Virus record (IMG/VR): IMGVR_UViG_3300021254_000033
Location: 1-64,000 of that record
Length of the DNA: 64,000 nt
From: a virus
Lineage: Duplodnaviria; Caudoviricetes
Reading direction: 5' to 3' (one strand)
Each line of letters starts with the position of its first letter. Within the stretch, counting starts at the first letter, position 1. Below the pieces are notes generated by a model. It was not told the origin of the DNA. It worked only from the letters and a program-made list of their open reading frames with translations, and made no database searches. This document shows, piece after piece, positions 1 through 43,986 of this stretch. Both the position numbers and the translations under genes were made by a program.

Positions 1-6
1 CTATAA

Positions 7-369
7 CTAACCCGCGGTGTATCCCTTCTGGGTTCCCTTCTTCGGAACCTTCACGTCCTGCACACAAGCCCAGCCCTTCGCTACTGCCTGTCTCAGGAGA
101 GCACTCGCAGCCTGTACCTTAACTTCGGCGCCTTCCAGTTCGGTCAGCTCGGCCGCAATGACGGTAGCAGTCTTCGGTTCTGCGGTCAGCATATCGGCTA
201 CCTGGCGAATCCGCGGTTCCTTCTCCTTAGCCTTGATAGCTGCCTTCTCTTTTCTCTTCTCATTCGTCGCGTCCATCTGCATCAGCTGTCTTTCAGCGTA
301 TTCTCTCATTTCGTTGGTGATGGTTTCTTCGTTGATGATGGCGTTGTAGAATTCTCTCATAGTCTTCAT
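7..369 (-). CDS. Small protein, N-terminal helical/coiled region plus C-terminal winged-HTH-like domain; paralog of 4399..4743
   Basis: RBS AGAAAGAGG upstream; shares REFY.AI.N, MDA.NE.RK.K and VK(V/I)PK.G motifs with 4399..4743. Confidence 0.85.
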   Translation of the reverse strand: MKTMREFYNAIINEETITNEMREYAERQLMQMDATNEKRKEKAAIKAKEKEPRIRQVADMLTAEPKTATVIAAELTELEGAEVKVQAASALLRQAVAKGWACVQDVKVPKKGTQKGYTAG

Positions 370-455
370 ATTGTTCCTCTTTCTCCGACAGTGAAGCCGT
401 CGGCGCTACTTTTTTACTTGAGAGAGTCAGTATCTCTCTCTCACTTTCTATATAT

Positions 456-484
456 AGTATACTAAAGATTTAATGAAAAATAAA
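456..484 (-). promoter_or_regulatory. Probable sigmaA promoter (weak -35)
   Basis: -10 TATACT followed by ATATATAGAAA as in other promoters of this phage; -35 only TTTATT. Confidence 0.5.
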
Positions 485-786
485 ATTTTGGAGCTGTTTT
501 TTAGAATTTGATTTTCGGAAAGTTTTGCAGCTGCGGGAAGGAAAAATTTGGGAATTCTGGGAAACGCAGCTGCAGCTGTTTTTTTGACAAAAATAAAAAT
601 TTGCAGCCGCTCAAGATTTGCAGCTGCTACGAAAATTTGTAGCTGTTTTAAAATTTGATTTCTGGTAAATTTTGGGCGCCCGGGCACTTCGTGCACGACC
701 ATGATCTATGATCTAGGAAGATTTCGTGGAAAGAAATTCCTGGAAAATTCTGGTTGGAATAAAATTTGAAAAATGGGAAAATTTGG
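482..786. repeat. Degenerate direct repeats AAAATTT(T)GCAGCTG in a non-coding gap
   Basis: Copies near 482, 519, 597, 613, 632; GCAGCTGCAGCTG at 566; further AAAATTTG units to 786. Confidence 0.7.
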
Positions 787-822
787 CGGCCCGGGCAAAG
801 TTAGTTTTGGGCAACACTAAGT

Positions 823-853
823 AAAAAAAAGAAGACGATTATTAATCGTCTTC
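823..853 (-). terminator. Intrinsic terminator
   Basis: GAAGACGATT-3-AATCGTCTTC stem, T8 tail on minus strand. Confidence 0.85.
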
Positions 854-997
854 CCATTCGTCGAAGTTTGGGTCTTCCCATGGATAACTGTCTTCATCCA
901 CTCCCAGACCGCACCAGTAACGACAATCATCGCCACCGATAGCATTATATGGACATTCGCCGTAATCACATGGAGTATCTTTCTTACCATACATCAT
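842..997 (-). CDS. 51 aa Cys-rich acidic peptide (MMYGKKDTPCDYGECPYNAIGGDDCRYWCGLG...), below the ORF-track cutoff
   Basis: Manual translation; start overlaps the end of 984..1139; stop lies in the terminator. Confidence 0.7.
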   Translation of the reverse strand: MMYGKKDTPCDYGECPYNAIGGDDCRYWCGLGVDEDSYPWEDPNFDEWEDD

Positions 998-1139
998 CTT
1001 CATCTTCCTCTCTTTCTACACTATAGTAATAATAATCTGTGCATTCATCTTCGGGGTCGCCAATTACACATTCATAAGTTACGTCTACGCAGTAAGGACA
1101 TTCTATATCTGCGGTGGGACAGTAGTATGTTTTTCTCAT
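984..1139 (-). CDS. 51 aa Cys-rich acidic peptide (MRKTYYCPTADIECPYCVDVTYECVIGDPEDEC...)
   Basis: Manual translation; RBS AAGGAAAGGAG and consensus promoter directly upstream. Confidence 0.8.
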   Translation of the reverse strand: MRKTYYCPTADIECPYCVDVTYECVIGDPEDECTDYYYYSVEREEDEDDVW

Positions 1140-1172
1140 TTGAACTATCTCCTTTCCTTATCTTGTATACAT

Positions 1173-1201
1173 AGTATAACACAAAACATTATGATTGTCA
1201 A
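1173..1201 (-). promoter_or_regulatory. sigmaA promoter
   Basis: TTGACA-17-TATACT with extended TG. Confidence 0.9.
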
Positions 1202-1262
1202 CCCCTTTTAAAAATTTTTTTTTCGCGCCCGGGTGGCGGTTAGCCTCGACTAACTCTCGTTC

Positions 1263-1284
1263 AAAAAAAAGAGGGTCACCCCTC
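1263..1284 (-). terminator. Intrinsic terminator
   Basis: GAGGG-GTGA-CCCTC plus T8. Confidence 0.8.
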
Positions 1285-1635
1285 TCTTTCTGCCTTGGCT
1301 TTTGCTTTGGCTTCCCGCATTTTACGGTCACGCTCCTGCTTCTTCGCCTTGGCTTCGGCGTTGGCTTTCGCCTTTTCCTCTTTCGCTTTCAGTTTGAGGG
1401 CGTAGTCCTCAGCCATAGCGTAACCATCATAGGGGTCGCCATCACGAGAACCGATAGGCATCTTGAAGGTGAGGACGAGGAAATCTTCTTCTCCATCCGC
1501 ACGTACTACGGGAATAGCATATTCGTTGGAGCCTACCAACAGAACTTCTTCCCCTCTTTCCTCAAGGAAGTTGCCGATAATCAGCATGAATTGGGAACGC
1601 ATATTATCTCTTGCCTGTTTTGTGGATTTTGCCAT
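1276..1635 (-). CDS. Hypothetical protein with charged C-terminal tail; paralog of 3066..3422
   Basis: Shared K.P.GSRDG(D/E)PYDGY.MAE(D/E)Y motif; RBS AAGGAAAGGAG. Confidence 0.9.
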   Translation of the reverse strand: MAKSTKQARDNMRSQFMLIIGNFLEERGEEVLLVGSNEYAIPVVRADGEEDFLVLTFKMPIGSRDGDPYDGYAMAEDYALKLKAKEEKAKANAEAKAKKQERDRKMREAKAKAKAEREG

Positions 1636-1668
1636 AGTGTTTATCTCCTTTCCTTATCTTGTATACAC

Positions 1669-1697
1669 AGTATAACATAGTATTATAAAAAAGTCAA
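1669..1697 (-). promoter_or_regulatory. sigmaA promoter
   Basis: TTGACT-17-TATACT; 36 bp around -10/RBS nearly identical to the 1173 promoter. Confidence 0.9.
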
Positions 1698-1799
1698 CCC
1701 TTTTTCCGAAAAAAGTTTAAGTATTTTTTCTGCATATATGTGATCTATGATCGTAGACGGCGGCCCGGGCGCCACCTACGAAGAAAGTCGCATATGGGT

Positions 1800-2444
1800 T
1801 TATACCCATAAACGACCATCAACTTCTTCGTTATTCTCAAAACAAAAACGCATGATTTCCTTTTCAATCAGAACATCTTCCAGTCCTTTGTGTTCTTCAA
1901 CAAAATTATTATCGCCAGAAATGAATCTGTAAAGAACTTCTGCGGTGTACTTCCGACAGTTTCGGGAAGTTAAATAGTTATTCTCATGACAGAACTTTCC
2001 ATACTCATCATTTTTTTTCAAAACTTTTCTTGCCATCTTCAGAGTATCCCACCATTCAACTCCATAGGGGAGGAAGAAACGATATTTTGAAGAGGTCAAA
2101 AAGCGTTGAGTAAGATTCAAAGAGTGATAATCAAATTTTGCATTATGAGCAAAAACTTTTTTGATATTGTACTGTTTACAAATATCATAGATGATAAAGC
2201 GAATTGTCTTAAATCTCCGAAGCAAGCGTTTTCCCTCTTTGATTTCTTCCCAATACTGAGGAATTTTTTCAGAGTAGTAGGCGCTACTCATCAGCTCCTT
2301 ATCTAAAAATACGTCAGCCACAACGTAGCTATGACTTTCATAGACGTTAGCGTTTTTGTCAATAACTGCAAAACCGATGTCATAACAAATAGGGTCATCA
2401 AGAGAATTAGTTGTTTCAGTGTCAATGATTAAGTATTTTTCCAT
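1800..2444 (-). CDS. DEDDh 3'-5' exonuclease family protein
   Basis: Motifs IIDTETT, AHNAKFD, WDTL, HKGLEDV. Confidence 0.9.
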   Translation of the reverse strand: MEKYLIIDTETTNSLDDPICYDIGFAVIDKNANVYESHSYVVADVFLDKELMSSAYYSEKIPQYWEEIKEGKRLLRRFKTIRFIIYDICKQYNIKKVFAHNAKFDYHSLNLTQRFLTSSKYRFFLPYGVEWWDTLKMARKVLKKNDEYGKFCHENNYLTSRNCRKYTAEVLYRFISGDNNFVEEHKGLEDVLIEKEIMRFCFENNEEVDGRLWV

Positions 2445-2477
2445 TTTTTCGTTTTCCTTTCTTTATCTTATGTATAC

Positions 2478-2506
2478 ATTATAATATATAGAAAGAGAAA
2501 AGTCAA
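2478..2506 (-). promoter_or_regulatory. sigmaA promoter
   Basis: TTGACT-17-TATAAT. Confidence 0.9.
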
Positions 2507-2568
2507 CCCCTTTTTTCAAGTATTTAAAAAAAATATATGCGACCCATCCCGCACATCGGCGCCCGGGC

Positions 2569-2592
2569 AAAAGGTTGCCTAATCAGACAACC
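2569..2592 (-). terminator. Intrinsic terminator
   Basis: GGTTGTCT-GATT-AGGCAACC (one G:U) plus TTTT. Confidence 0.7.
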
Positions 2593-2758
2593 AATCAACT
2601 CCATCATATTTATCTATTACTTCTTCATCCATAAGTGCAGTGCAGTAAAAGTCAAAAGGACAACTTGAACACGCATTCCATTCATCATTTTCATGACACG
2701 CCTCTTTTATTAGTTTCATTCCCTGTATCATTTTTTCTTGCCAAGTCTTTTTAAACAT
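2579..2758 (-). CDS. 59 aa Cys-cluster protein (C-x8-C-x2-CPF-x3-C)
   Basis: Manual translation MFKKTWQEKMIQGMKLIKEACHENDEWNACSSCPFDFYCTALM...; RBS GGAGAAAG. Confidence 0.75.
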   Translation of the reverse strand: MFKKTWQEKMIQGMKLIKEACHENDEWNACSSCPFDFYCTALMDEEVIDKYDGVDWLSD

Positions 2759-2786
2759 CTTTCTTTCTCCTTTTTATTGTTTTACT

Positions 2787-2951
2787 TTATAAAATCTTAA
2801 TAAGAATATAATACATTACCAGTATCTCAAACCATCCGCATAAAATAAACCAACGACCAATTCGTTCAAAAAAATTACAGTTTTGATACACATACTCTTT
2901 TCCGTAATTATGTATATCCATGAAATATAGAATAATGGTTAACAAGAACAT
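2787..2951 (-). CDS. 54 aa hydrophobic, probably membrane peptide (start reassigned to MFLLTII)
   Basis: RBS AAAGGAG before ATG at 2951; the track's 3008 start lies inside the promoter. Confidence 0.7.
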   Translation of the reverse strand: MFLLTIILYFMDIHNYGKEYVYQNCNFFERIGRWFILCGWFEILVMYYILIKIL

Positions 2952-2979
2952 TTTTTTTCTCCTTTCTTTTTCTATATAT

Positions 2980-3008
2980 AATATACCACATTTAATTGTC
3001 CTTGTCAA
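2980..3008 (-). promoter_or_regulatory. sigmaA promoter
   Basis: TTGACA-17-TATATT, extended TG. Confidence 0.85.
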
Positions 3009-3055
3009 CCCCTTTTAAAAAAATTTTCTGGCGCCCGGTCCGCCCAATAAATGGA

Positions 3056-3080
3056 AAACGAGAGATTAATTCTCTCGTTT
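3056..3080 (-). terminator. Hairpin/terminator overlapping stop codon
   Basis: AAACGAGAGA-5-TCTCTCGTTT. Confidence 0.65.
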
Positions 3081-3422
3081 CTTTTTCATTTCCTGTTTTT
3101 TTTCTCTAATTTTTTTATCCCTTTCAACCTTTTTTCTTTTTGCCTCTTCTTTCTCCTTTCTCTTTTCCTCTTTTGTTTTTAACTTAATCTGATATTCTTC
3201 TGCCATAGAATATCCATCGTAAGGTTCGCCATCTCTTGAACCTGTTGGAACCTTTACAACAATCTGAATAAACTTTTCGTTCTGTTCAGAGTCAACACAT
3301 GGAATCGCAATCTCGTTAGTGCCTGTGCGAAGAACCTCGTCGTCATTTTCTAACAGTTCGATAATTTTAGTCAGATACTCTTCACGAAGAGTATCATTTA
3401 ATTTCTTCTGAGAAACTGCCAT
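3066..3422 (-). CDS. Hypothetical protein; paralog of 1276..1635
   Basis: VKVPTGSRDGEPYDGYSMAEEY motif; K/E-rich tail. Confidence 0.9.
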   Translation of the reverse strand: MAVSQKKLNDTLREEYLTKIIELLENDDEVLRTGTNEIAIPCVDSEQNEKFIQIVVKVPTGSRDGEPYDGYSMAEEYQIKLKTKEEKRKEKEEAKRKKVERDKKIREKKQEMKKKREN

Positions 3423-3436
3423 TTTAACACTCCTTT

Positions 3437-3685
3437 CTAACGTTCGTTTAACTGTTCATAAAGTTTGGAAATAGTTGTTAAAAGTACCTGTTTTCTTTTG
3501 GTTTCAAAAGCGATACCATTTTCAATCCATTCTTCAATGGGTTCTCCATTTCTTTGACATCTTTTGTATTCTGTTTTATACCATTTCAAATCTTCTTCTG
3601 TATCATTCAGATATGATTTTACATAATCATAAATACAAGATAAAGTTTCTGCCTCAATAATTACGTTATCAAATTCAGTGACCAT
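3437..3685 (-). CDS. Hypothetical protein (82 aa)
   Basis: RBS AAGGAAGGAG; promoter upstream. Confidence 0.8.
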   Translation of the reverse strand: MVTEFDNVIIEAETLSCIYDYVKSYLNDTEEDLKWYKTEYKRCQRNGEPIEEWIENGIAFETKRKQVLLTTISKLYEQLNER

Positions 3686-3714
3686 TTTTTTCTCCTTCCT
3701 TATTTTCTATATAA

Positions 3715-3743
3715 ATTGTACCACAGAATAAAAGGAATGTCAA
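3715..3743 (-). promoter_or_regulatory. sigmaA promoter
   Basis: TTGACA-17-TACAAT, extended TG. Confidence 0.85.
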
Positions 3744-3898
3744 CTATTTTTTTTATTTTTTCTAAAAAAATTATAACAAAAATTTTTTAAAAAATCAAAT
3801 AATTTTTTCTTTAATACTTTACTATAGTGAAGTGCGCGCCCGGGCAGTTAGCAAGAGACAACTCTCTTGCTAACCGTCTTAGAAGGAAAGGAAATTAT

Positions 3899-4225
3899 TT
3901 AATTTTCTTCAATGTTTTCTATATCATAAATATCATCAAAACATTCTCTACTTGGTGGCGTCATTCCTGACCAGAATTTTCTTTCTGCTTCCTCTTTTGT
4001 TTTTGCTTTAATTTTACAATAACCAGAGAAATCAATATACCATTCTTTTTCCTCTAAATAATCATACTCTTTTAATGCGTCGAGATTGTTTACAAGTGCA
4101 TATTCTACAATATCTTTTGCTGTAGTCCACGCAATATAATTTTCTTGACTACAATTATCTATTCTTGCATTTAAGATATGAATTAAAGTGTCAACAACTT
4201 CGGAAGAGATTCTTGTATACTTCAT
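3899..4225 (-). CDS. Hypothetical protein (start probably MKYTR)
   Basis: RBS AAAGGA; promoter upstream. Confidence 0.8.
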   Translation of the reverse strand: MKYTRISSEVVDTLIHILNARIDNCSQENYIAWTTAKDIVEYALVNNLDALKEYDYLEEKEWYIDFSGYCKIKAKTKEEAERKFWSGMTPPSRECFDDIYDIENIEEN

Positions 4226-4263
4226 AATTATCATTCCTTTCTTTTTCCTCTTTGATTATCTAT

Positions 4264-4292
4264 AGTATACCACAGTAAAATCATTTTGTCAA
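4264..4292 (-). promoter_or_regulatory. sigmaA promoter
   Basis: TTGACA-17-TATACT, extended TG. Confidence 0.9.
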
Positions 4293-4356
4293 TAGAAAAA
4301 ATAATGTATTTTATTTCCATTGCGTCCGGGCGGGTTAGCGACGGCTAACTCAACCT

Positions 4357-4387
4357 AAAAAAAGAAAGGACGCATATAGCGTCCTTT
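4357..4387 (-). terminator. Intrinsic terminator
   Basis: AAAGGACGC-5-GCGTCCTTT plus T-tract. Confidence 0.85.
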
Positions 4388-4398
4388 TTCCCGAAAGA

Positions 4399-4743
4399 CT
4401 ACACAATCTTGTAAGCCTTTCTCTTTCCGACTTTCGGAATCTTCACTTCTTCAACTGTCAGTTTTCCTTCAGCAACCAACTGACGAGCAAGAGCACCTGC
4501 CTTGTTGTGAGTAATATCGAGAGCCAAACCGAGGTCAGTTTCCGTCATAGCGTTACCTACTTCAGTGAGGTGAGTGAGGATTGCTTCCTTGATAGGAGCG
4601 TTTTCGATAGCAGTCTTGGAAGGCTTAGCCTTTCTTGCTTCGTTGCGAGCATCCATCTTAGCGATTGCTTCAGCTGCGAAAGCCATAACTTCTTCGTTCA
4701 TTGTGCCATTAACGATTGCGGTGTAGAATTCTCTCTGTAACAT
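4399..4743 (-). CDS. Winged-HTH-like DNA-binding protein; paralog of 7..369
   Basis: IL..L.E.G..MT..DL...L......L..EGKL wHTH pattern; RBS AAAGGAAAAGG. Confidence 0.85.
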   Translation of the reverse strand: MLQREFYTAIVNGTMNEEVMAFAAEAIAKMDARNEARKAKPSKTAIENAPIKEAILTHLTEVGNAMTETDLGLALDITHNKAGALARQLVAEGKLTVEEVKIPKVGKRKAYKIV

Positions 4744-4787
4744 AGTTCTTACCTTTTCCTTTCTGTTTTTCTTTATCTTACATACTT

Positions 4788-4816
4788 ATTATAACATGGA
4801 TTCGGAAGTTTGTCAA
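4788..4816 (-). promoter_or_regulatory. sigmaA promoter
   Basis: TTGACA-17-TATAAT, extended TG. Confidence 0.9.
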
Positions 4817-4882
4817 CCCTTTTTTTAATTTTTTTATTTTTTTCTTTCGGCTGACGTTTTCCTTTCCTTACCTTGTATATAT

Positions 4883-4911
4883 AATATACCACAATTTTAT
4901 AAATTCGTCAA
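4883..4911 (-). promoter_or_regulatory. Second tandem sigmaA promoter with its own RBS but no ORF
   Basis: TTGACG-17-TATATT followed by AAGGAAAGGAAAACG with no start codon. Confidence 0.75.
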
Positions 4912-5026
4912 CCCTTTTTCAGAAAAAAATTTAAGTATTTTTTTTACGCATATGTGATCTATAAATGTAGAACGCGCCGCCCGGGCACAACGGTTAGTAT
5001 AAACTAACCGCCAACCTTTTACTAAA

Positions 5027-5452
5027 TTAAAATGTTTTTAATACTTCAAGAATATTGTTTACATCATACGCACCCTCACCCCATTCTTTTCTATTCTTTT
5101 CTTCGTCATCAAAAAGGATTCCTTTTCTTCCGATATGTTTCGGAGTGCCATATTCAATAATATCAATGTGGTCAAATCTAACACTTCTTAAATGAATCTG
5201 AAGCCATTCAATTTTTGCTTTTGCAACAGCTCTCTGATATTGAGGTGTAGCCCCTTTACTAAGCCAGCTGACAATACCTAATTTATATCCTTCTCTCTGT
5301 AATCTATTCAGGATTCTTGCGAGAGCTGCTAATCTCAGGAGCGGAGCCGCTTCTGCATACGGTGTAGCATCTTCAGCCATCAATTTTTCCAACCAGTTCG
5401 GAACCCCATATAAATCTGCGATTGTGCCATCCATATCAAACCAAATTGTCAT
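5027..5452 (-). CDS. HAD-family 5'(3')-deoxyribonucleotidase-like protein
   Basis: FDMDGTIADLY motif I, LFDD motif IV. Confidence 0.85.
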   Translation of the reverse strand: MTIWFDMDGTIADLYGVPNWLEKLMAEDATPYAEAAPLLRLAALARILNRLQREGYKLGIVSWLSKGATPQYQRAVAKAKIEWLQIHLRSVRFDHIDIIEYGTPKHIGRKGILFDDEEKNRKEWGEGAYDVNNILEVLKTF

Positions 5453-5482
5453 TTCCTTTATCTCCTTTCCTTTTCTATATAT

Positions 5483-5510
5483 ATTATACCATTACTAAAA
5501 GAAAAGTCAA
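5483..5510 (-). promoter_or_regulatory. sigmaA promoter
   Basis: TTGACT-16-TATAAT. Confidence 0.8.
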
Positions 5511-5609
5511 TACTTTTTTAGAAAGTTTTTCAGAAAATTTTTCTGACTATTCTATGATCGTCGACCACTGCGCCCGGGTGGAACGGTTAGCAAAGCCTAA
5601 CTTTTGTAT

Positions 5610-5637
5610 AAAAAAAATAGACGGCGCGCCGTCTATT
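5610..5637 (-). terminator. Intrinsic terminator
   Basis: AATAGACGG-CGCG-CCGTCTATT plus T8. Confidence 0.85.
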
Positions 5638-5791
5638 CCTCTTCGTCAGATAAAATCCAGTATCTGACATAATATCCATGTCTACCATTAATGAATTTTT
5701 CTGCACCCTCTTTCGTATTAAAATGTTTTATAACAGTTTGTCCTCTCATGACATCATAACCCTTGGCGATATTTTCCAGAATTTTTTCCAT
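5633..5791 (-). CDS. 52 aa hypothetical protein (MEKILENIAKGYDVMRG...)
   Basis: Manual translation; RBS GGAGG. Confidence 0.75.
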   Translation of the reverse strand: MEKILENIAKGYDVMRGQTVIKHFNTKEGAEKFINGRHGYYVRYWILSDEEE

Positions 5792-5803
5792 TATTTTTTC
5801 CTC

Positions 5804-5950
5804 CTACTGAAAAAGTCTAATAAAGATTTCAAAAAAGTTTCCTGTCCAGTACACTGGATTATCAGAAAGATTTTTGGAACAGATTTCCATCCAACTAATT
5901 CCCACCCATACTAAAAAGGCTGTACTTGTTATTGTTAAAAAATTCCGCAT
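5804..5950 (-). CDS. 48 aa membrane peptide (MRNFLTITSTAFLVWVGISWMEI...)
   Basis: Manual translation; hydrophobic N-terminal helix; RBS AGGGGG. Confidence 0.7.
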   Translation of the reverse strand: MRNFLTITSTAFLVWVGISWMEICSKNLSDNPVYWTGNFFEIFIRLFQ

Positions 5951-5955
5951 TATTT

Positions 5956-6126
5956 TTACCCCCTAACATTTTCGAAAATAATTCCGTTATTGATTTCTTT
6001 TTGGGCAATCTGTGCGACTTTATTTTCGCTATATGCACCATAGAACCAAAATTCTCCAGCAACTTCTCTCGCTACGATGAACCTATATTCTCTTGCATAT
6101 TCGGGAAGATTATTGATTTTCTTCAT
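5956..6126 (-). CDS. 56 aa hypothetical protein (MKKINNLPEYAREYRFIVAREVAGEFWFYGAY...)
   Basis: Manual translation; RBS AAGGAAAGG; promoter upstream. Confidence 0.8.
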   Translation of the reverse strand: MKKINNLPEYAREYRFIVAREVAGEFWFYGAYSENKVAQIAQKEINNGIIFENVRG

Positions 6127-6162
6127 TGTTCTGTTCCTTGCCTTTCCTTATTTTCTATAATT

Positions 6163-6191
6163 ATTTTACCACTTTCTTTTCGGGAAGTCAA
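6163..6191 (-). promoter_or_regulatory. sigmaA promoter
   Basis: TTGACT-17-TAAAAT, extended TG. Confidence 0.85.
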
Positions 6192-6334
6192 CCTTTTTTC
6201 TAAAGTTTTTCGGGAAAATTTTCGAAAATTTTTTCGAGTATCGGGATCCGACCGAAATATTTTCTGCGACGCCCGGGCAAAAGGAAGTTATTCCCATAAC
6301 TTTTTTGAGAACCTTCCTTTGACTTATTAATTTT

Positions 6335-6568
6335 CTAAAACATATCTTGGTCAACTACGAAATAATATTCTACCTCGGGAGCAACACAACCATTAAACCA
6401 TTTATTGGGTTTTTCTTTTGTGAGTCTTTCGGCTTCCTTTTCTGCGTCGACTCTGTTCTTTCCTGTGTAGTATGCGAGAAATTCGTCACATCTTCTTTCG
6501 TATTTTGTACCCTCGTTATATACTGTCGGAGTCTTTGCCTTATAACAAATTGCTAACATTTTTTCCAA
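6335..6568 (-). CDS. Hypothetical protein (77 aa)
   Basis: RBS GAAAGGAG. Confidence 0.8.
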   Translation of the reverse strand: MEKMLAICYKAKTPTVYNEGTKYERRCDEFLAYYTGKNRVDAEKEAERLTKEKPNKWFNGCVAPEVEYYFVVDQDMF

Positions 6569-6614
6569 CTCCTTTCTTCTCCTTTTTATTTTTCTTCCTC
6601 TTCTTTCTATAATT

Positions 6615-6643
6615 ATTATACTATAACTTTATATAAAATGCAA
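6615..6643 (-). promoter_or_regulatory. sigmaA promoter
   Basis: TTGCAT-17-TATAAT. Confidence 0.8.
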
Positions 6644-6728
6644 GTATTTTTTTATAATAAAAAGAAAATTATTTAATCAAATTAAAATTAGTCAATGCTA
6701 ACTGCCCGGGCAAAAGCATAAACGAAAC

Positions 6729-6752
6729 GAAGAGAGACTTTAGTCTCTCTTC
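6729..6752 (-). terminator. Hairpin/terminator at stop codon
   Basis: GAAGAGAGACT/AGTCTCTCTTC inverted repeat. Confidence 0.7.
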
Positions 6753-7207
6753 ATCATTCTCATCAGTGTCTTTTCATTTGTAAAGGTTGCTGCAGTGTAC
6801 TTAATCTGATATGCAATTCCGTCCACTGTGATATCTCCGTCTTCGGTGAAGGGGACGTTATCCTTTTCCCATTCCTGTCCAAAGTATTCAGTTACCAGTT
6901 TTTCGAAGACTTCACCTTTATTATATTTTGTATTCTTTACTAATTCTTCAAAGAATCTTGCGGAGCAGAGGATTGTGTATCCGTTCTGCTTTAACAGTTC
7001 TCTTTGTGCCTTGTTCGGTTTGAATCTGAGACTGTAGCCCTGACCTCTGCCTGCCTTATCCAGCTTGCAAACGTAGGGGAGAACGCTGTCATCAGCCTTC
7101 ACGAGGTAGATATTATCATTCTCTTCGAAGCCGAAGAGGTATTCGCCTGTGTATGCGAGTTCCATATATGTTTCAATCATCTTCTTGAACAGTTCTAAAT
7201 TCTTCAT
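6740..7207 (-). CDS. Putative PD-(D/E)XK-like nuclease-fold protein
   Basis: C-terminal NKGEVFE...GDITVDGIAYQIK pattern (E...D...QxK). Confidence 0.6.
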   Translation of the reverse strand: MKNLELFKKMIETYMELAYTGEYLFGFEENDNIYLVKADDSVLPYVCKLDKAGRGQGYSLRFKPNKAQRELLKQNGYTILCSARFFEELVKNTKYNKGEVFEKLVTEYFGQEWEKDNVPFTEDGDITVDGIAYQIKYTAATFTNEKTLMRMMKRD

Positions 7208-7237
7208 TTTTGTTCTCCTTTCCTTCTTTCTGTAATC

Positions 7238-7266
7238 ATTGTATCATATCTGCCGGTCGCTGTCAA
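7238..7266 (-). promoter_or_regulatory. sigmaA promoter
   Basis: TTGACA-17-TACAAT, extended TG. Confidence 0.9.
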
Positions 7267-7430
7267 TACTTTTTTTAAAATTTTTTTCAGCTTCAGCTCC
7301 CTCATATTTCCAGTAAATATTTTCCTGCTTTGCAGCCGGGTGATTAGTTTCCATGATCTTCCAGCTCCAGCTCCTGTGTATTTCCAGATTCTTCCAAAGG
7401 ATCTGAAGGCATGGGAATCAGGGTAGGGGA

Positions 7431-7928
7431 TTACTCCCCTGCCCTTTCGTCTAACCATGTCAGCATCTTTCCAGATGTTTTCTTAAACTTGATTTTGTAA
7501 CAGGTCTTTCCGGATTCTTTATTCCATCCAGCCCACTCTGTTACAAACTCTCTGAATTCTGTAGCGTTCATCTCATAGATACTTGCTACGCCGTCGATGA
7601 TTGCCACATATGCCCATCTTGTAGAATGTACTCTGTCGAAGTACTCAGCCAACAGGCTTTCCATGTTTTCAGCGGTCGGCTCATCTCTGTACAGACAAGC
7701 AAGCGACGCACCGGAGCTTTTAACACTTATTCCCAGCTCTTCAATATCCGAACCCTTATCAAATGCGATGTGGTCCGTGTCGAATTTGAAACCGTAGCCA
7801 TAGAATTCCTGAGCGTAGCATTCCGCAAGATTGCCACCGTTTCCGATAGCTTTTCCTATTTGATACTTATTCCCCTTACCCTCAAGACGGGTGAACGTGG
7901 CGCCTGTAGTGTGATAAAATTTTAACAT
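7431..7928 (-). CDS. Putative PD-(D/E)XK-like protein, apparent circular permutant of 6740..7207
   Basis: N-terminal NGGNLAE...SDIEELGISVK pattern; C-terminal YKIKFK matches YSLRFK of the neighbour's N-terminus. Confidence 0.6.
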   Translation of the reverse strand: MLKFYHTTGATFTRLEGKGNKYQIGKAIGNGGNLAECYAQEFYGYGFKFDTDHIAFDKGSDIEELGISVKSSGASLACLYRDEPTAENMESLLAEYFDRVHSTRWAYVAIIDGVASIYEMNATEFREFVTEWAGWNKESGKTCYKIKFKKTSGKMLTWLDERAGE

Positions 7929-7958
7929 TGTTTTTTCTCCTTTCCTACTTCTCCATCT

Positions 7959-7988
7959 ATTCTATCACACTCAACAAGAAAAGTACAA
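7959..7988 (-). promoter_or_regulatory. Probable sigmaA promoter
   Basis: TTGTAC-18-TAGAAT. Confidence 0.55.
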
Positions 7989-8220
7989 TCAAATTTTCTT
8001 ATGACGTCATAAAAATCTTTGATGGGGGATCATCAAAAGAAAACCTACTAAAAAAATAAAACATACCACCCTAAAATTATTTTCGCCTTTTTCTACAAAT
8101 GATCACCCTTACATATGTATTACTTTTTCAATATATATGTAAGATACATATATGCGACGATGGGGGTACATTTTAGGTTTTTCGCATGGTAAATCCTGGA
8201 AATCGTACGGGCCTGGAATT

Positions 8221-8262
8221 TTCGTACTCTGAAATAATTTTTTCGTACTCTGAAATAATTTT
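8221..8262. repeat. Perfect 21 bp tandem repeat x2 (TTCGTACTCTGAAATAATTTT)
   Basis: Units 8221-8241 and 8242-8262 are identical. Confidence 0.95.
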
Positions 8263-8289
8263 TCAACCTCTCTACCCCTCCAGGAAAAT

Positions 8290-8318
8290 TTGACACCCTT
8301 CCCAATCTGTGCTATACT
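8290..8318 (+). promoter_or_regulatory. sigmaA promoter, divergent from the cassette array
   Basis: TTGACA-17-TATACT, extended TG. Confidence 0.9.
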
Positions 8319-8356
8319 ATTATTAGATGCGGGAAATATACGAAAAGGAATGAAAA

Positions 8357-9739
8357 ATGAGAAATAGACTAAAACTCGACTGGGCGCTCACTACATCATC
8401 TGAACGCTCATCTTTCATTAACAACTACATACAAAGCGAAACTTTCTCCAAAATAAAGCCGACTTCAGATGAACTAGAAACAATGGCTAATTACGTACTC
8501 TGGGGAAAAGACGAAGATGGACTCAACTCCGATCAGCGCAAAGAAATTGAGATGCCCCGCAAATACTCCACCTGGGCCGCTCAAAACATTGACTCCCTAG
8601 ACGAAAAAATTGATTCGCCATCTTTCTCCGAAGGAACGCTCCAAAAGCTCGGCACTACCCCCCTAACCAAAAAACCAAAAGAAAGTTTCTCCAGAGAAGA
8701 AACCAGAAACACTGCGCCACCCTCTACTCTACCTCTCTTCGAGGAACTTTGGGAGAGAATCGACTACACCGAACTCCTCATCAACCTCTACGAAGAAAAA
8801 ACCGGAAAGCGCAAAAAACCTCCTCGTGACGAACTTCTCCAACGCTTTTCAGAAGAAAAACTCCAAAAAATTCAAGAGAAAGCCACAACCCTTTCTCAGT
8901 ATAAGTATTTGAAGTTGAAGCATTTACTTGTGGAGTTGCGCCGGGAGCAGTATACGTTGAAGGATTCGTATGCGGAGGGAATTTGTAGGAGGAGTTATGG
9001 AGAGGTCAATACGGGAGTTGAACTGGTTGAGGAAGTGGCAGACGTTTTTAGGAAGTTGGACGTTTTTGAGGAAGAGGTTCCCGTGCTTCCGTTGGGAGTT
9101 ATGGAGAAGAAAGGAAGTGGTTTTTGGAGAGAAAGAGAAGATATTATTCCGGAGAACTTTGGGGAAGAAGAGATTTTGGAATTTTCTAAAGTTTTTTGGG
9201 AAAAAGAAGACATTAGAGAAAGAGTAGAAGGCGCGAGCCCGTCATCTGAAGTGAAGTATTTTGATTTTAGAGATTTGGAGATGGTTTATCAGTTGCTTTT
9301 GGAGTATCAAGAGATGTCGAGAGATAGTCAGGTTTGGTTGAGGAATACTTCGAAATTGATTCAGACGCTTTTTTATTATGTGGAAGAGGCGCATTTGACT
9401 GAAATTCAGGAGAAGATACTGCGGCTGAAGATGCGGCGGGTCAAAAATCAGGATATTGCTAATCAGATTAATGGGGAATATGGGAAGAGTTATACTGCTA
9501 ACTATATTTCGACTATTTTTAGGCAGAAGATTATTCCTGAGATTAATGGCGCGGCCGCACTCCATGCGCAACTTGTTAGTAGCCTTCCTTTTGAGGAAGA
9601 GTTTAAGCGATGTACAAGATGCGGCCGAGTGCTTTTGCGCGATCCTGTTAATTTTGTAAGGAAGAAGAGAGCCAAAGATGGCTTGTCTAGCAGATGTAAG
9701 AAGTGTGATAAAGAGGAAAGAGAGAGGAATAAGAGATGA
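8357..9739 (+). CDS. Putative transcription regulator: sigma-region-4/HTH-like motif plus C-terminal Cys4 zinc ribbon
   Basis: LTEIQEKILRLKMRRVKNQDIA...YISTI; CTRC...CKKC; first gene of the morphogenesis strand. Confidence 0.6.
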   Translation: MRNRLKLDWALTTSSERSSFINNYIQSETFSKIKPTSDELETMANYVLWGKDEDGLNSDQRKEIEMPRKYSTWAAQNIDSLDEKIDSPSFSEGTLQKLGTTPLTKKPKESFSREETRNTAPPSTLPLFEELWERIDYTELLINLYEEKTGKRKKPPRDELLQRFSEEKLQKIQEKATTLSQYKYLKLKHLLVELRREQYTLKDSYAEGICRRSYGEVNTGVELVEEVADVFRKLDVFEEEVPVLPLGVMEKKGSGFWREREDIIPENFGEEEILEFSKVFWEKEDIRERVEGASPSSEVKYFDFRDLEMVYQLLLEYQEMSRDSQVWLRNTSKLIQTLFYYVEEAHLTEIQEKILRLKMRRVKNQDIANQINGEYGKSYTANYISTIFRQKIIPEINGAAALHAQLVSSLPFEEEFKRCTRCGRVLLRDPVNFVRKKRAKDGLSSRCKKCDKEERERNKR

Positions 9740-9978
9740 GTAAGAGTTCAAAACGCTGGGATGTTTTTATGGAACATTTGTTTAAGTTAGATGTCGTTGA
9801 ATTTATTGGGGTTGCGAAAATGCTGGGGATTGATGTTGTAAGTGATCCTAAGGATTTTGAAGATCCCGGAAAGGGATTTCCGGAGGTTTTTGCGGAGATA
9901 CTTGATAAATTCAATGCTCTTGATAGAAGAAAACAACGTAATCTTTTGAAGATTATGAAGAAGGCAGGGAAGAAATAA
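9736..9978 (+). CDS. Hypothetical protein (80 aa)
   Basis: ATGA overlap with the upstream gene; abuts the next gene. Confidence 0.8.
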   Translation: MSKSSKRWDVFMEHLFKLDVVEFIGVAKMLGIDVVSDPKDFEDPGKGFPEVFAEILDKFNALDRRKQRNLLKIMKKAGKK

Positions 9979-10983
9979 ATGGCTTTAAAGACTAATATAC
10001 AACCTCCAAGAAAATTTTTTATTAAGAAGTGCGCGAAGTGCGGCCAGGACTTTGGTCCAGAGAACTACTCTCAAACTAAATCTTTTTTCTTTCCTGATGG
10101 TTATTTGACTATTTGTAATGATTGTATAGATGAGTGGCTGCGCGCTGACGACTATAGTTGGGACGCAGTCAGTAAATTATGCCAATGCGCGGATATTCCT
10201 TTTATTCCTGCTAAATGGGAAGAGATGTATGAGATTAATGGGAAGCAAGCTTTTCAAATGTATGCTGAAGTTTTCTTGGAAAAGGAATACGAAGGGTTAC
10301 ACTGGGCAGATTATAATGATGAGTTTAGGAGACTTAAGGATTTAGGTGGTATTGAGGAACAGCTACCTTTGATTTCTGAAGAACATCGGAAGAAGTTGAG
10401 AGAAAAATGGGGAGCCAACTATGACGATGAGGGGTTGAATTATCTGGAAAATCTTTATAATGGCTTATTGATGACTCAAAATGTCTCGGGCGCCCTTCAG
10501 GGCGACCAGGCATTGAAGATTTGCAAAATTTCTTATGAACTGGATAGTAGAATTAGGTCTGGACAAGATTTTGATAAGATGTTGAGTTCTTATGATAAGC
10601 TGGTTAAGACTGCGGAATTTACTCCCAAGAATGTTAAGAGTGCAAGTGATTTTGAAAGTGTTGGTGAACTTTTTAGATGGCTTGAAAAAAGAGGATGGAA
10701 AAATCAGTTTTATGATGATGTTACTAAGGATATAGTTGATGAGACGATTATGAATATTCAGAATTGGAATCAGCGGCTGTATACTAATGAAACTGGAATT
10801 GGTGAGCAGATTACAGAGAGAATTGAGGCTTTGAAATCTGCTAAAAAGTTAGAAGAAACTGGTTATTATGGCTTGTCTAATCAGGAATATGATTTAGATG
10901 AATATGATAATGTTGGATATGAGGAACTTTTTAAGGCTGATGAGGAGTTTGTGGAAGATATAGGAGAAGATTTAAATGTCTAA
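9979..10983 (+). CDS. Probable terminase small subunit with N-terminal zinc finger
   Basis: CAKC...CNDC; immediately upstream of and overlapping TerL; acidic tail. Confidence 0.6.
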   Translation: MALKTNIQPPRKFFIKKCAKCGQDFGPENYSQTKSFFFPDGYLTICNDCIDEWLRADDYSWDAVSKLCQCADIPFIPAKWEEMYEINGKQAFQMYAEVFLEKEYEGLHWADYNDEFRRLKDLGGIEEQLPLISEEHRKKLREKWGANYDDEGLNYLENLYNGLLMTQNVSGALQGDQALKICKISYELDSRIRSGQDFDKMLSSYDKLVKTAEFTPKNVKSASDFESVGELFRWLEKRGWKNQFYDDVTKDIVDETIMNIQNWNQRLYTNETGIGEQITERIEALKSAKKLEETGYYGLSNQEYDLDEYDNVGYEELFKADEEFVEDIGEDLNV

Positions 10984-12769
10984 GGAATTGTTGTCAACTC
11001 ATGTTACTTTAGATCCAAGTGTTATTCAACGTGGTGAGCGCGAAGGTATAGAGTTAGATAAAGGGGTTATTTTAACTCCACCATATTTAGATAAGAATTA
11101 TGATCTTTTTACTAAATATGCTAATTTTTTTACCGCTTATCCTGACCTTTTTTTAGACCTCATTCAGCCGAAGGATTCTAATTTTAAATTGTTTTTCTAT
11201 CAGAGAATAGTTTTACGTTCTATTATGCGGTATAAGGAAGTTTATATTAGCGCTCCTCGTGCTTTTTCGAAATCTTTTATTACAATTTTAGGGTTAGTTT
11301 TACAATGTATCTTTATTCCAGGTACAAAACGTTTTATTTGCGCGCCTAATAAGAATCAGAGTGCGCAAATTGCTAAAGAAAAACTAACAGAAATCTTTGA
11401 AAGATGGCCTCTATTAAGAAAAGAAGTTATTGGTGGAGATATTTCTGATACACCTGGTAATTATGGTAAGGATTATGTAACTCTTAAATTTAGAAATGGT
11501 TCACAATTTGACGTTGTAGGCGCGCTGGATAGCCAACGTGGTGGCCGTAGACATGGCGGGCTAATAGACGAAGCTAGAGACCATGATGAAATAGAGATTA
11601 ATGAAATTGTTTTACCTCTGATGAATGTATCTAGAAGACTTCCAGATAATACTGTTAACGATAAGGAACCAAATCAAGAAGTAATTTGGATGACGAGTGC
11701 GGGATTGAAGGCTTCGTATGCTTATGACCATTTGATTGATGTCTTTGAAAACTCAATTATTAATCCACAAGAAGCTTTTGTGTTTGGTTGTGATTATAGA
11801 ATACCAGTTTTACATGGTTTACTTGATAAGACTTATATAAATAAATTAAAGATGTCTCCTTCTTATAGTGAAGAATCTTTTGCGAGGGAGTATCTTTCAA
11901 TTTGGAGTGGTTCTTCGAGTGAATCTTGGTTTAATTATGATAAGTTACAAAAATATCGGAAAATAAAAAATCCAGAAACGCACTTTTTGAATAGACCAAA
12001 CTCCCGACAATTTTACATATTATCAGTAGACGTAGGTCGTATATCCGACCAAACTGTTTGTTGTGTTTTTAGAGTTAATGTCGTACAAGGTAAATATTTA
12101 GCTACTTTGGTGAATCTATTTGTCCTAGGACGCACAGCAGAAACTAAACCTTTTGTAATACAAGCCACAGATTTAAAAAAGATTATAAGAGCTTTTCAAC
12201 CAAAAGAGGTTGTAATCGATACTAATGGTTTAGGAGTTGGCCTTGCTGATGAGATGATTAGAAGTCAGGTAGATGAAAACGGTGAAATTCTGCCGCCGTA
12301 CGGTTTCACTAATGATGATAATTATCGTAGAATTCAACCAAAAGATGCAATATGTATTTTGTATGGAATTAAAGCTAATGGTTCTTTGAATTCAAGAATC
12401 CATGGTAATGCTTATTCTCGTTTAAATAGCGGAAAAGTGCGCTTCTTGATTAAGGAACAAGAAGCAAAGAGCGCATTATTAGCTACTAAAATTGGACAAA
12501 AGATGTCTACAGAACAAAGGGTTAAGCGCCTTATGCCACATGAGATGACAAGTCGACTTTTTGATGAAATGTCAAACTTACGATTAAAAAGAACTGGAGC
12601 GTCCTTGGATATAGTTTTGGAGCAAATTAATTCTAGACATCCGAAGGATAAGTATTCTGCTTTTGCGTATGGTCTTTGGAGAATTAATGAATTAGAAGAA
12701 GAAGAATATACGAGAGGTAGTCGTCGAAATGGTGTGCGTAGACTTATATTTTTTACAGGAGGAAATTAA
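10976..12769 (+). CDS. terL: Terminase large subunit
   Basis: Walker A-like APRAFSKS, Walker B LIDEA, nuclease SVDVG, C-terminal KDKYSA. Confidence 0.92.
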   Translation: MSKELLSTHVTLDPSVIQRGEREGIELDKGVILTPPYLDKNYDLFTKYANFFTAYPDLFLDLIQPKDSNFKLFFYQRIVLRSIMRYKEVYISAPRAFSKSFITILGLVLQCIFIPGTKRFICAPNKNQSAQIAKEKLTEIFERWPLLRKEVIGGDISDTPGNYGKDYVTLKFRNGSQFDVVGALDSQRGGRRHGGLIDEARDHDEIEINEIVLPLMNVSRRLPDNTVNDKEPNQEVIWMTSAGLKASYAYDHLIDVFENSIINPQEAFVFGCDYRIPVLHGLLDKTYINKLKMSPSYSEESFAREYLSIWSGSSSESWFNYDKLQKYRKIKNPETHFLNRPNSRQFYILSVDVGRISDQTVCCVFRVNVVQGKYLATLVNLFVLGRTAETKPFVIQATDLKKIIRAFQPKEVVIDTNGLGVGLADEMIRSQVDENGEILPPYGFTNDDNYRRIQPKDAICILYGIKANGSLNSRIHGNAYSRLNSGKVRFLIKEQEAKSALLATKIGQKMSTEQRVKRLMPHEMTSRLFDEMSNLRLKRTGASLDIVLEQINSRHPKDKYSAFAYGLWRINELEEEEYTRGSRRNGVRRLIFFTGGN

Positions 12770-14262
12770 TGAGTGAAAAAATTGGTAACAATGATATTAA
12801 TAGATTATCCTCCTTCAAAAAAGCCAATTCTGGTATGATAGCAATTAATAATCAGGTATATACAGGTTATTTAGATGGTTCTAAAACAAGAGTTAGACGT
12901 AATTACACTTTAAAACAAGTTGAAAAGATTATTACGGATGGTTCTATTGAAGAACAACAAGAACTTTCAAGATATTATTTCATGAAAGATGGACTATATA
13001 AAAGATTAGTTATTTATTATGCTACTTTATTAAAATACACTGGTATTCTAATTCCAAATTCTGGTTTTGGGAAAAATCTCTCCACATCCCATATTAGAAA
13101 AAGGTATTTTAGTGCCTTAAATTTTTTAGAGAATGCTGATCTTGTTAATAAATTTAACTATATAGCCCAGAAAGTTTTTGTTGATGGTTGCTATTACGGA
13201 ATTATTCTGGCGGCGGACAAGGATAAACTTGTTATTATAGATTTACCTAGTAAATATTGCCGTTCTCGTTTTAAAGATTTAGATGGGAATGATATAATTG
13301 AGGTAGATCTTAGTTATTTTACGACTCTTTTAGATGAAAATGTAAGAGAGCAAACTTTAAGAGCTTATCCGAAAATTATTCGTGATGCTTATATTAAATA
13401 TCAGAAGTCTGGTTTATCTAAATGGTTTATGATACCAAGTGAGGTATCAGTTTGTTTCTCTTTATTTGATGGAACACCTTTATTTTTATCAACCATTCCT
13501 GCGATTATGCGCTATGATGATGCCGTAGAAACAGAGGCAGAGCGCGATGCGGAGGAAATTAGAAAAATTTTGGTTCAACATATGCCTCATATGCAGGATG
13601 GACGCTTAATTTTTGAACCTGAAGAAGCAGAAGAAATGCACCGTGGTGCAGTTAAGATGTTAAGTGGAAATAAAAATATTAGTGTTTTAACCACTTATGC
13701 CGATGCTGATGCTATTGTTTCTAAAACTACATCAGAGGCTTCTGCTAATAATTTAGAAAAAATGGTTCAAAATGTTTATAGTGAGACTGGCGCAAGTAGC
13801 CAAATTTTTGCTTCAACTGGTAGCGCCACTTTAGCCACATCAATAAAAAATGATTTAGGACTTGTTATGGTTTTAGCCAACAAGTTTGCATCTATTATTA
13901 CTAAAATTGTTAATCAATTATTCTCTAATAGTAATATTGATTTTAAGTATAATATATTACCTATTAGTTATTATAATGAAGATGAATATTTAGATAATTC
14001 TTTTAAATTAGCAAGTTCTGGTTACAGTTTATTACTACCAGCCTTGACAATGGGGATGTCACAAAGAGATATAATGAATATTAAGGAACTCGAGAATGAC
14101 GTCTTAAATATGGTTGACAATTTAGTACCACCTCGAACCTCTTACACTGAATCTGGTGAAGTAGGCGCGCCGAAGAAGGCAGAAGAGGATAAATCACCTA
14201 AAACTTTGGCTAATGAGCAGTCTTTAGATAACCAGACCAGGGAGGCCCCAAATAATGAGTAA
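12769..14262 (+). CDS. Portal protein
   Basis: Position after TerL, 497 aa, acidic/basic C-terminal tail. Confidence 0.8.
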   Translation: MSEKIGNNDINRLSSFKKANSGMIAINNQVYTGYLDGSKTRVRRNYTLKQVEKIITDGSIEEQQELSRYYFMKDGLYKRLVIYYATLLKYTGILIPNSGFGKNLSTSHIRKRYFSALNFLENADLVNKFNYIAQKVFVDGCYYGIILAADKDKLVIIDLPSKYCRSRFKDLDGNDIIEVDLSYFTTLLDENVREQTLRAYPKIIRDAYIKYQKSGLSKWFMIPSEVSVCFSLFDGTPLFLSTIPAIMRYDDAVETEAERDAEEIRKILVQHMPHMQDGRLIFEPEEAEEMHRGAVKMLSGNKNISVLTTYADADAIVSKTTSEASANNLEKMVQNVYSETGASSQIFASTGSATLATSIKNDLGLVMVLANKFASIITKIVNQLFSNSNIDFKYNILPISYYNEDEYLDNSFKLASSGYSLLLPALTMGMSQRDIMNIKELENDVLNMVDNLVPPRTSYTESGEVGAPKKAEEDKSPKTLANEQSLDNQTREAPNNE

Positions 14263-15595: not shown

Positions 15596-15615
15596 AAATA
15601 TGGAGGCATACTAAA

Positions 15616-16209: not shown

Positions 16210-16228
16210 TAAGAGGAGGTAAACAGCT

Positions 16229-42665: not shown

Positions 42666-42876
42666 CCCAAATCCCTCCAAATTGCTGCACGAGTTTTACA
42701 ATATATGCTTCATCGATAATTTCACCTTTTGCTTTTTTAGTTTTATAAGTGTATCCCGCCGCAGTTAAAATAAAACCATCATTTTCTGCTTTATTTTTGT
42801 AGTCTTCAATAAGTTTTTTTGCTTCAGGTTCACTGTCTGCCCTAAATTCTAAGGTTTGTTTTAAGATTCGTGTCAT
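42655..42876 (-). CDS. Hypothetical protein (73 aa)
   Basis: Operonic overlap on both sides. Confidence 0.8.
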   Translation of the reverse strand: MTRILKQTLEFRADSEPEAKKLIEDYKNKAENDGFILTAAGYTYKTKKAKGEIIDEAYIVKLVQQFGGIWDEE

Positions 42877-43923: not shown

Positions 43924-43957
43924 TTTCTTCCTTTCTACCATATCATTTTCTATATAT

Positions 43958-43986
43958 AGTATACTACAAAAGAAAAAAATATTCAA
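43958..43986 (-). promoter_or_regulatory. sigmaA promoter
   Basis: TTGAAT-17-TATACT followed by ATATATAGAAA. Confidence 0.75.

Follow-up and report, generated by a model that had tools for sequence, protein, structure and literature searches.

The 8-base palindrome GCCCGGGC is a real, conserved mark of the junctions between the early transcription units at the beginning of the virus contig IMGVR_UViG_3300021254_000033. The window analysed here is the first 64 kb of this linear contig, which is 78,585 bases long and is estimated to be 67% complete. It encodes a sigma-like factor, a large terminase, a portal protein, a DnaE-type polymerase, DnaB, a type II topoisomerase and an anaerobic ribonucleotide reductase; the phage is an uncultured large gut or rumen phage, a member of a family of gut and rumen phages of 110-240 kb. 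Taking into account the position of the word, its conservation in relatives, the symmetry of its flanks and its co-occurrence with one protein family across interleaved lineages, we tentatively favour the explanation that GCCCGGGC is the recognition site of a phage-encoded dimer, for which the restriction-enzyme-like first protein of the early block would be the best candidate.

Exact copies of GCCCGGGC were found at eight positions of the window (678, 789, 1763, 2561, 3838, 4979, 6271 and 6704) and copies with one mismatch at four (1227, 3033, 4324 and 5572), exactly where the initial annotation had placed them. All of these fall between positions 678 and 6711. In dinucleotide-preserving shuffles of the window the chance expectation for the word was 0.04 and no shuffle contained more than one copy, in agreement with the earlier estimate of far below one. 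The sole further one-mismatch match in the 64 kb, GCCCTGGC at 16145, is intragenic, and 2.1 such matches are expected by chance. When the whole contig was scanned, no copy was found beyond the eight in the array (the other ~71 kb were empty), and each of the ten CCCGGG hexamers of the contig lies inside the array, so that the claimed absence of the word outside the early block also held over the full contig. The consensus proposed earlier, GCGCCCGGGC, is the same word as the consensus of the sense (minus) strand, GCCCGGGCGC, of which it is the reverse complement.

Bases 1-8000 carry about 20 small minus-strand genes arranged in 12-13 transcription units. Most of these genes had no Pfam or PHROG match, and they are mostly ORFans. 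Read in the sense direction, the junctions between the units follow a common order: the stop codon is followed by a rho-independent terminator, often by a GTTAG-N4-6-CTAAC hairpin and, after 1-6 nucleotides (nt), by GCCCGGGCGC; then come a variable spacer, an A/T-rich UP tract and a promoter consisting of TTGACA, 17 nt and TGnTATAAT. To judge from these elements, the early promoters downstream of the word are of the host (sigma-70) type. The word or a near copy is present at 13 of the 13 terminator-to-promoter junctions of the early block, gene boundaries inside operons and tandem promoters are unmarked by it, and the distal end of the array is doubled (copies at 789 and 678). The copies and the promoters that they precede are the following:

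678-685: exact copy of GCCCGGGC, the second of two that close the far end of the array
789-796: exact copy at the far end of the array, past the terminator of 842-1003
1227-1234: one-mismatch copy, sense ACCCGGGC, 4 nt past the GTTAG-N6-CTAAC hairpin at 1239-1254
1763-1770: exact copy at a junction
2561-2568: exact copy at a junction, immediately past a hairpin and TTTT
3033-3040: one-mismatch copy, sense GACCGGGC
3838-3845: exact copy, 1 nt past the GTTAGCAAGAGA hairpin (12-bp stem) at 3847-3874
4324-4331: one-mismatch copy, sense GCCCGGAC, past the hairpin at 4334-4349
4979-4986: exact copy, 4 nt past the hairpin at 4993-5008
5572-5579: one-mismatch copy, sense ACCCGGGC, 6 nt past the hairpin at 5586-5601
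6271-6278: exact copy at a junction
6704-6711: exact copy, the first full one, past the terminator of 6740-7207, with an AGTTAG hairpin on the promoter side
7334-7341: degenerate copy with two mismatches (AGCCGGGT, sense ACCCGGCT) at the first junction of the block, between the first two units, read directly
1173-7266, minus strand: row of 12 promoters of the consensus type (TTGACA, 17 nt, TGnTATAAT; AT-rich UP tracts), downstream of the junction words

Unit 6335-6568 is more likely to be transcribed from a weaker promoter match (TTGCAT) at 6615-6643.

The bases next to the word are constrained as well. Among 221 distinct sites, position -1 was T in 119, C in 83, G in 17 and A in 2 (T or C in 91%, A in 1%), and position +8 was G in 132, A in 45, C in 38 and T in 6 (G or A in 80%, T in 3%); positions -2 and +9 were K and M, respectively. 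The word and its flanks together thus make up a two-fold symmetric dyad of 10-12 base pairs (bp), K-Y-GCCCGGGC-R-M. Upstream of 86% of the sites a hairpin is found at a distance of up to 45 nt; the gap between hairpin and word has a median of 2 nt and is 5 nt or less at 69% of the sites, versus 35-42% in mirror and random controls. The distance from the word to the -35 element is much less uniform. In the present phage it is 28-98 bp when measured from the centre of the palindrome (25-95 bp had been reported), and in the relatives the median is 43 bp, with an interquartile range of 33-56 and an overall range of 23 to more than 100 bp. Helical phasing of the word to the promoter was looked for and none was found. 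The earlier statement that the word is not a fixed-position activator site is therefore upheld by a spacing that is both broad and unphased. Symmetric flanks combined with unphased spacing fit a two-fold symmetric reader of duplex DNA, not a polar RNA signal or an activator acting at a fixed distance, and the symmetry of the flanks points to a dimeric reader of double-stranded DNA. An Rfam search gave no match at E values up to 0.1.

Relatives were taken from IMG/VR by means of three different proteins, which yielded more than 80 loci (G-numbers denote genomes and L-numbers retrieved loci; G000 is the phage under study, and L011 lies in G001). About one third of these loci carry arrays of 3 to 51 copies of GCCCGGGC in the same slot. 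Counted over whole genomes, the copies are nearly all in one block (13 copies in G003, 19 in G006, 15 in G007, 12 in G008 and 51 in G046), and in G003 all 13 lie within 8.4 kb of a 68-kb contig; G002 has 4 copies. The sequences flanking the word are unrelated between the relatives, and the proteins that they share are just 40-65% identical. The distal end of the array again carries 2-4 close copies (28 bp apart in G003, three copies in L054, four in L028). Even a mismatched copy can have a counterpart: after the ortholog of the helix-turn-helix (HTH) gene, G002 has the word GCCCGGAG, which nearly matches the copy at 4324 and has the same A at position 7. Position and conservation in relatives thus speak for the boundary site that had been proposed as one of the possible functions.

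Sister phages use other words in this slot. Relatives without GCCCGGGC (G001 with L011, and many loci) have palindromes of 19-23 bp at nearly every early promoter, as many as 29 of them, with the form TTAGxxx-N5-xxxCTAA and three inner bases that vary by lineage. These palindromes comprise TTAGACG-N5-CGTCTAA and the variants TTAGATG, TTAGGTG, TTAGACT and TCGTACGT, and end 5-8 nt before the -35; the junction word of the G001 type is TTAGATGTA-n-TACATCTAA. In L078, L048, L087 and L084 the slot is occupied by GCCGGC, which is also the word of the G030 type, in L036 and L100 by a polar, degenerate CCGGGCR (12 sense versus 1 antisense in L036), and in L037 and L045 by mixed xCCGGx words. One and the same junction between two orthologous genes, whose proteins are 82% and 72% identical, carries GCCCGGCC in G002 and AATTAGATGTAccACATCTAATT in G001, and in the terminase tree phages with different word types are intermingled, at least six sister pairs combining opposite types. 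The type of the word is a property of the phage and not of the neighbouring genes. If the trans-acting reader had changed, one would expect just this, all junction words replaced together over genes that are still orthologous.

Further short elements were seen beside the word in some relatives. In G003, GGAAGCGG (sense-strand form ACCGCTTCC) occurs nine times on one strand and three times on the other in the interval 7815-17225, all in the early block and often right after GCCCGGGC; this word, present in G003 only, is another lineage-specific junction module. Its reading as a Chi site was rejected, because it is confined to the early block rather than spread genome-wide. Perfect CGAACAnnTGTTCG boxes, which we take to represent the LexA-type (Cheo) consensus of Firmicutes, adjoin the junction word at L054:1000-1015, L054:4100-4118, L031:5595-5614 and L045:540-560, which suggests host SOS control of some early units in relatives.

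The candidates for the reader are encoded by the first two genes of the array:

7431-7928, minus strand: putative PD-(D/E)xK, restriction-endonuclease-like protein of 165 amino acids (aa), first gene of the early array, best candidate reader
6740-7207, minus strand: paralog of 155 aa, second gene, with an N-x-G-x3-E ... D ... Q-I-K core at the C-terminal end

All open reading frames of 75 loci were clustered and each family was tested for association with the presence of an array. The 7431-7928 family was found in 13 of 21 array loci and in 1 of 54 others (p=2e-8), and no other family within 8 kb tracked the arrays. Most of the array loci lacking this family end upstream of the array, and whole-genome searches detected the family or the paralog type in G006, G007, G008, G009, G011 and G012. 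Loci that had been retrieved by the protein alone carried 6-29 copies of the word in eight out of eight cases. Among 40 near-complete genomes, the family profile matched 16 of the 17 with CCGG-centred arrays, GCCGGC and degenerate versions of the word included, and none of the 23 without; the single array genome that was not matched is an 82%-complete contig in which the array is cut by the contig end.

The 7431-7928 family has 70 homologs, all unnamed; its member is usually the gene that opens the array, and its invariant residues are N30-x-G32-x3-E36, D61 and [S/Q]68-x-K70. Sequence searches gave no match to Pfam or to the PDB, i.e. to any solved enzyme, and the Atlas lead for the family was PDDEXK_16. 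The AlphaFold model of the protein has a predicted local distance difference test score (pLDDT) of 95.5, and the nearest solved folds are those of small type II restriction enzymes and homing endonucleases, namely NhoI (Z 5.8, root-mean-square deviation 3.7, 110 residues aligned), I-Ssp6803I (5.4), HhaI (5.2), HinP1I (4.9), and MutH and MspI (both 4.7). Modelled as a homodimer, the protein reached an ipSAE of 0.71, against 0.00 for the best control, with a symmetric interface, 100% contact agreement between runs and pLDDT of at least 93; of the proteins solved as one-chain pairs, 20 of 30 reach the ipSAE mark, and of those solved as single chains, 1 of 23. By this model the 7431-7928 protein is a homodimer. 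The symmetric flanks and the co-variation of the word with a DNA-enzyme-like protein modelled as a dimer lend support to the operator of a dimeric protein, which was another of the functions proposed in the initial annotation. The proteins named there for binding tests were the winged helix-turn-helix (wHTH) proteins encoded at 7-369, 4399-4743 and 59398-59655. They are poor candidates, because the putative recognition helix is nearly unchanged in the family of 7-369 and 4399-4743, which occurs across phages with quite different words; the restriction-enzyme-like proteins 7431-7928 and 6740-7207 are better candidates.

We infer the following course of events. GCCCGGGC, the core of a symmetric word of 10-12 bp, would be a cis-acting site in double-stranded DNA; one such word stands at each junction between early units transcribed by the host RNA polymerase, as the first element past the terminator or hairpin. 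The word would be read by a phage homodimer, with the 7431-7928 protein and its 6740-7207 paralog as the best candidate. Once the first gene has been expressed, the dimer would occupy every junction and in this way keep the units apart, stopping read-through and marking the end of the early block. As the putative catalytic E, D and K are invariant, the protein is predicted probably to nick or cut at the junctions as well, and such nicks or cuts could feed recombination or recombination-dependent replication in this hyper-variable block. If this is so, the proteins 7431-7928 and 6740-7207 should prefer a duplex with TGCCCGGGCG over a scrambled duplex.

Several observations weigh against this explanation. 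The spacing to the -35 is so broad that promoter control, if any, cannot rely on a fixed contact. Neither paralog type is universal in array-bearing genomes: only the 6740 type was found in G006, G011, G012, G030 and G034, and only the 7431 type in G008 and G028. The structural Z scores of 5-6 were graded middling, and Foldseek with the 7431-7928 model returned nothing below E=0.1. Phages with AT-rich palindromes have a very distant relative as their first gene, with the motifs DSGxxGKxFE ... D ... E[IV]K; profile-profile comparison with the 7431-7928 family gave an E value of 0.003 at 10% probability, and the protein has the same structural neighbours, NhoI leading at Z 7.6. The fold alone therefore does not single out GCCCGGGC. 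Gene and sites share a module of about 10 kb, so that co-inheritance without a functional link could also give the association. Finally, no methyltransferase match (PF00145 or PF01555) was found in G000 and four complete array-bearing genomes; an active double-strand cutter fits poorly with 12 sites left unguarded in its own genome and would need another control. A more far-reaching version, in which an orphan, self-directed, restriction-like first early protein nicks or cuts its own DNA between all early units and thereby drives recombination-dependent replication and the exchange of units, with word and enzyme switching together (GCCCGGGC, GCCGGC, GGCCGGCC, AT-rich palindromes), is speculative and seems to us rather unlikely.

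The arrangement can be compared with several known systems. GCCCGGGC is the site of SrfI and thus a bona fide restriction-enzyme word (PMC2784808). The likeness to type IIP enzymes and their sites (SrfI GCCC/GGGC; NhoI and PvuII as small dimers of the PD-(D/E)xK kind) extends from this identical 8-bp GC palindrome to the candidate reader, with its putative E...D...xK core, small restriction endonucleases as its nearest folds and a symmetric homodimer model. In contrast to such systems, there is no cognate methyltransferase here, the sites are kept in the phage's own genome and only between transcription units, and the candidate reader has no sequence similarity to any solved enzyme. In cluster A mycobacteriophages, with their stoperators, and in phiC31, with its conserved inverted repeats, a short site has many intergenic copies and one phage reader, and site and protein differ together between relatives. 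The readers (gp71 in L5) belong to temperate phages and are immunity repressors of the HTH type, and the stoperators are asymmetric and polar. The present phages resemble these systems in having many copies of one short, lineage-specific site in intergenic spaces. They differ from those phages in that the word is symmetric, the candidate reader is nuclease-like and there is no integrase; polarity is seen here only in the degenerate word of L036.

The closest architectural parallel is provided by the promoter-early stem-loop (PeSL) cassettes of the T4-type phages phi1 and RB49 (Arbiol et al. 2010, PMC2839356). Each has small, mostly ORFan early genes packed densely in a hyper-variable region, and each gene is served by one compact intergenic module with a strong promoter of the sigma-70 type, AT-rich DNA upstream of it and a terminator formed by a stem-loop. 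PeSL cassettes recombine with one another, which leads to the gain and loss of genes and to mini-circles; the single dated indel here arose between repeated sequences of the promoter and the ribosome-binding site (RBS). A separate invariant palindrome is lacking in PeSLs, however, and neither the sequence nor the position of their stem-loops is constant (PMC2839356), whereas here an exact 8-bp word with symmetric flanks stands outside hairpin and promoter, is common to phages with 50-60% identical proteins, switches as a set between sister phages and tracks one protein family. A phage system that marks its own DNA at a short consensus is also known from T5-like, phiKMV-like and tf phages, which have localized single-strand nicks (PMC3517423). 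The nick words are asymmetric, affect one strand and are scattered over the genome, and the T5 genes lie in the late region; here, in contrast, a palindromic word occurs at early junctions only, and the candidate gene opens the early block.

The word could instead be the operator of a different phage or host regulator, such as a repressor or activator of the early promoters, unrelated to the nuclease-like gene. A multi-copy, symmetric word upstream of promoters would agree with this explanation, and so would the long palindromes of the relatives, which at -43 to -65 of every early promoter resemble classical operators; the LexA-type boxes in the same spacers of relatives suggest that host factors are used. 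It is nevertheless somewhat improbable, considering that no other gene family near the arrays tracks them, that the HTH family keeps its recognition helix across phages with different words and that the distance to the -35 is unphased, and a host factor would leave the switching of the word between sister phages unexplained. A recombination seam without a dedicated protein, i.e. a short connector in a PeSL-like terminator/promoter cassette that is kept for the swapping of units, appears unlikely and a little less credible than an operator of this kind. It would agree with the mosaic build of the block, in which the units are self-contained, most genes are ORFans and gene order varies among G000, G002 and G003, and with the PeSL cassettes of T4-type phages, which work in this way (PMC2839356). 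Eight bases are, however, too short for homologous recombination, and a passive seam would not be expected to have flanks from which A at -1 and T at +8 are almost absent. The sole recent difference from a 98%-identical contig, a 515-bp indel comprising a gene and its promoter, ends in a short repeat at the RBSs and not at the word (2764-2776 of the window against L005:8343-8858, where the relative has an extra 156-aa gene with its own promoter; the repeat is a 13-nt overlap). Searches for tyrosine and serine recombinases (PF00589, PF00239) gave no match in five genomes. With the single datable indel breaking at an RBS repeat and no recombinase encoded, the recombination site suggested in the initial annotation found no support.

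The close association of the word with hairpins, together with the lack of a good U tract behind many G003 hairpins, could also be accounted for by a protein-independent GC clamp downstream of the terminator hairpin, which would slow RNA polymerase and aid termination or insulation. For such a role any GC-rich run would do, yet the exact palindrome is kept at hundreds of sites and switches as a whole; the flanks are symmetric and not polar, the AGTTAG hairpin is on the opposite side of the word in some units, and Rfam offers no match, all of which makes a clamp quite improbable. We give very little credence to the idea that the word is the target or decoy of a host restriction-modification or methylation system of the CCCGGG type. 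It does contain the SmaI/XmaI hexamer and equals the SrfI site, but a phage would be expected to lose such sites and not to keep them throughout its first-expressed DNA, outside the arrays CCCGGG is just as rare as GGGCCC, a control hexamer of matched composition, and sister phages on similar hosts use unrelated AT-rich words. As both hexamers occur only 0-3 times per genome outside the arrays, this avoidance test has no power.

Other candidates were considered and rejected. The lysine-rich early protein encoded at 1276-1635 is present in all lineages. A ParB/KorB-type centromere-like operator was dismissed after G000 gave no match to PF02195, and methylation of the word by a phage enzyme after neither a C5 nor an N4/N6 methyltransferase was found in the five genomes searched for such enzymes. 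Cassettes of the attC type are promoterless and end in RYYYAAC...GTTRRRY sites. An integron attC or other site-specific cassette system is not compatible with the lack of a recombinase and with units that each have their own promoter, and the neighbouring hairpin, GTTAG...CTAAC, has the opposite order to attC. Of the genes common to array phages, one of 514 aa encodes a BspA-type leucine-rich repeat protein and another, at 42873-43508 of the window, has a weak ThyX-like match. A search of the literature found no paper linking GCCCGGGC to phage biology.

Some further features of the early block are worth recording. Two tandem consensus promoters are found at 4788-4911, upstream of the HTH gene 4399-4743, and three at the same place in G002; this promoter-like segment is the block's only DNA similarity to isolated phages, namely to the terminal regions of Staphylococcus Herelleviridae. 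Four junction words are followed on the sense strand, within a few bases, by a GATCATAGATCA(C) motif (700-712, 1724-1742, 4945-4960 and 5546-5560). Past the last two words, at 470-660, there is a non-coding region of about 200 bp ahead of the HTH gene 7-369, with six CAGCTGCAAAnTTT-like repeats and AAATTTTACC motifs. Relatives have a similar region of CCAAAATTTTACC repeats past the terminal copies of the word, and the region at 470-660 is possibly an origin, or else a control region under different regulation.

Outside the early block, the large terminase genes of G011, G006, G007, G030, G042 and G046 contain 8-14 in-frame TAG codons, which suggests TAG recoding, and in many other relatives the terminase gene is split into two or three pieces, suggesting introns, inteins or inserted genes. 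At 41763-43986 of the window a 305-aa dUTPase/dCTP-deaminase-like protein, a weak ThyX-like protein that is absent from G001 and a dCMP deaminase are clustered, which might hint at a changed pyrimidine metabolism or at modified bases.

In the genomes of large phages, no part changes faster or is less well understood than the early 'host-takeover' blocks. In this phage family the block follows a simple, checkable grammar of terminator, short symmetric word, optional modules, UP element and promoter, which adds an invariant symmetric word to a PeSL-like architecture. The switching of the word as a set over orthologous genes predicts a matching trans-acting reader, and the candidate would represent a new minimal restriction-enzyme-like family. 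If the pairing of word and protein is true, these phages would have a new way to insulate, shut off or shuffle their early genes, the proteins would form a natural series of small proteins with different specificities of 6-8 bp and longer, and the word would serve as a marker for early regions in uncultured phage genomes. If the self-cutting version is also true, the family would possess a programmable cassette-exchange system that works without recombinase or methylase.

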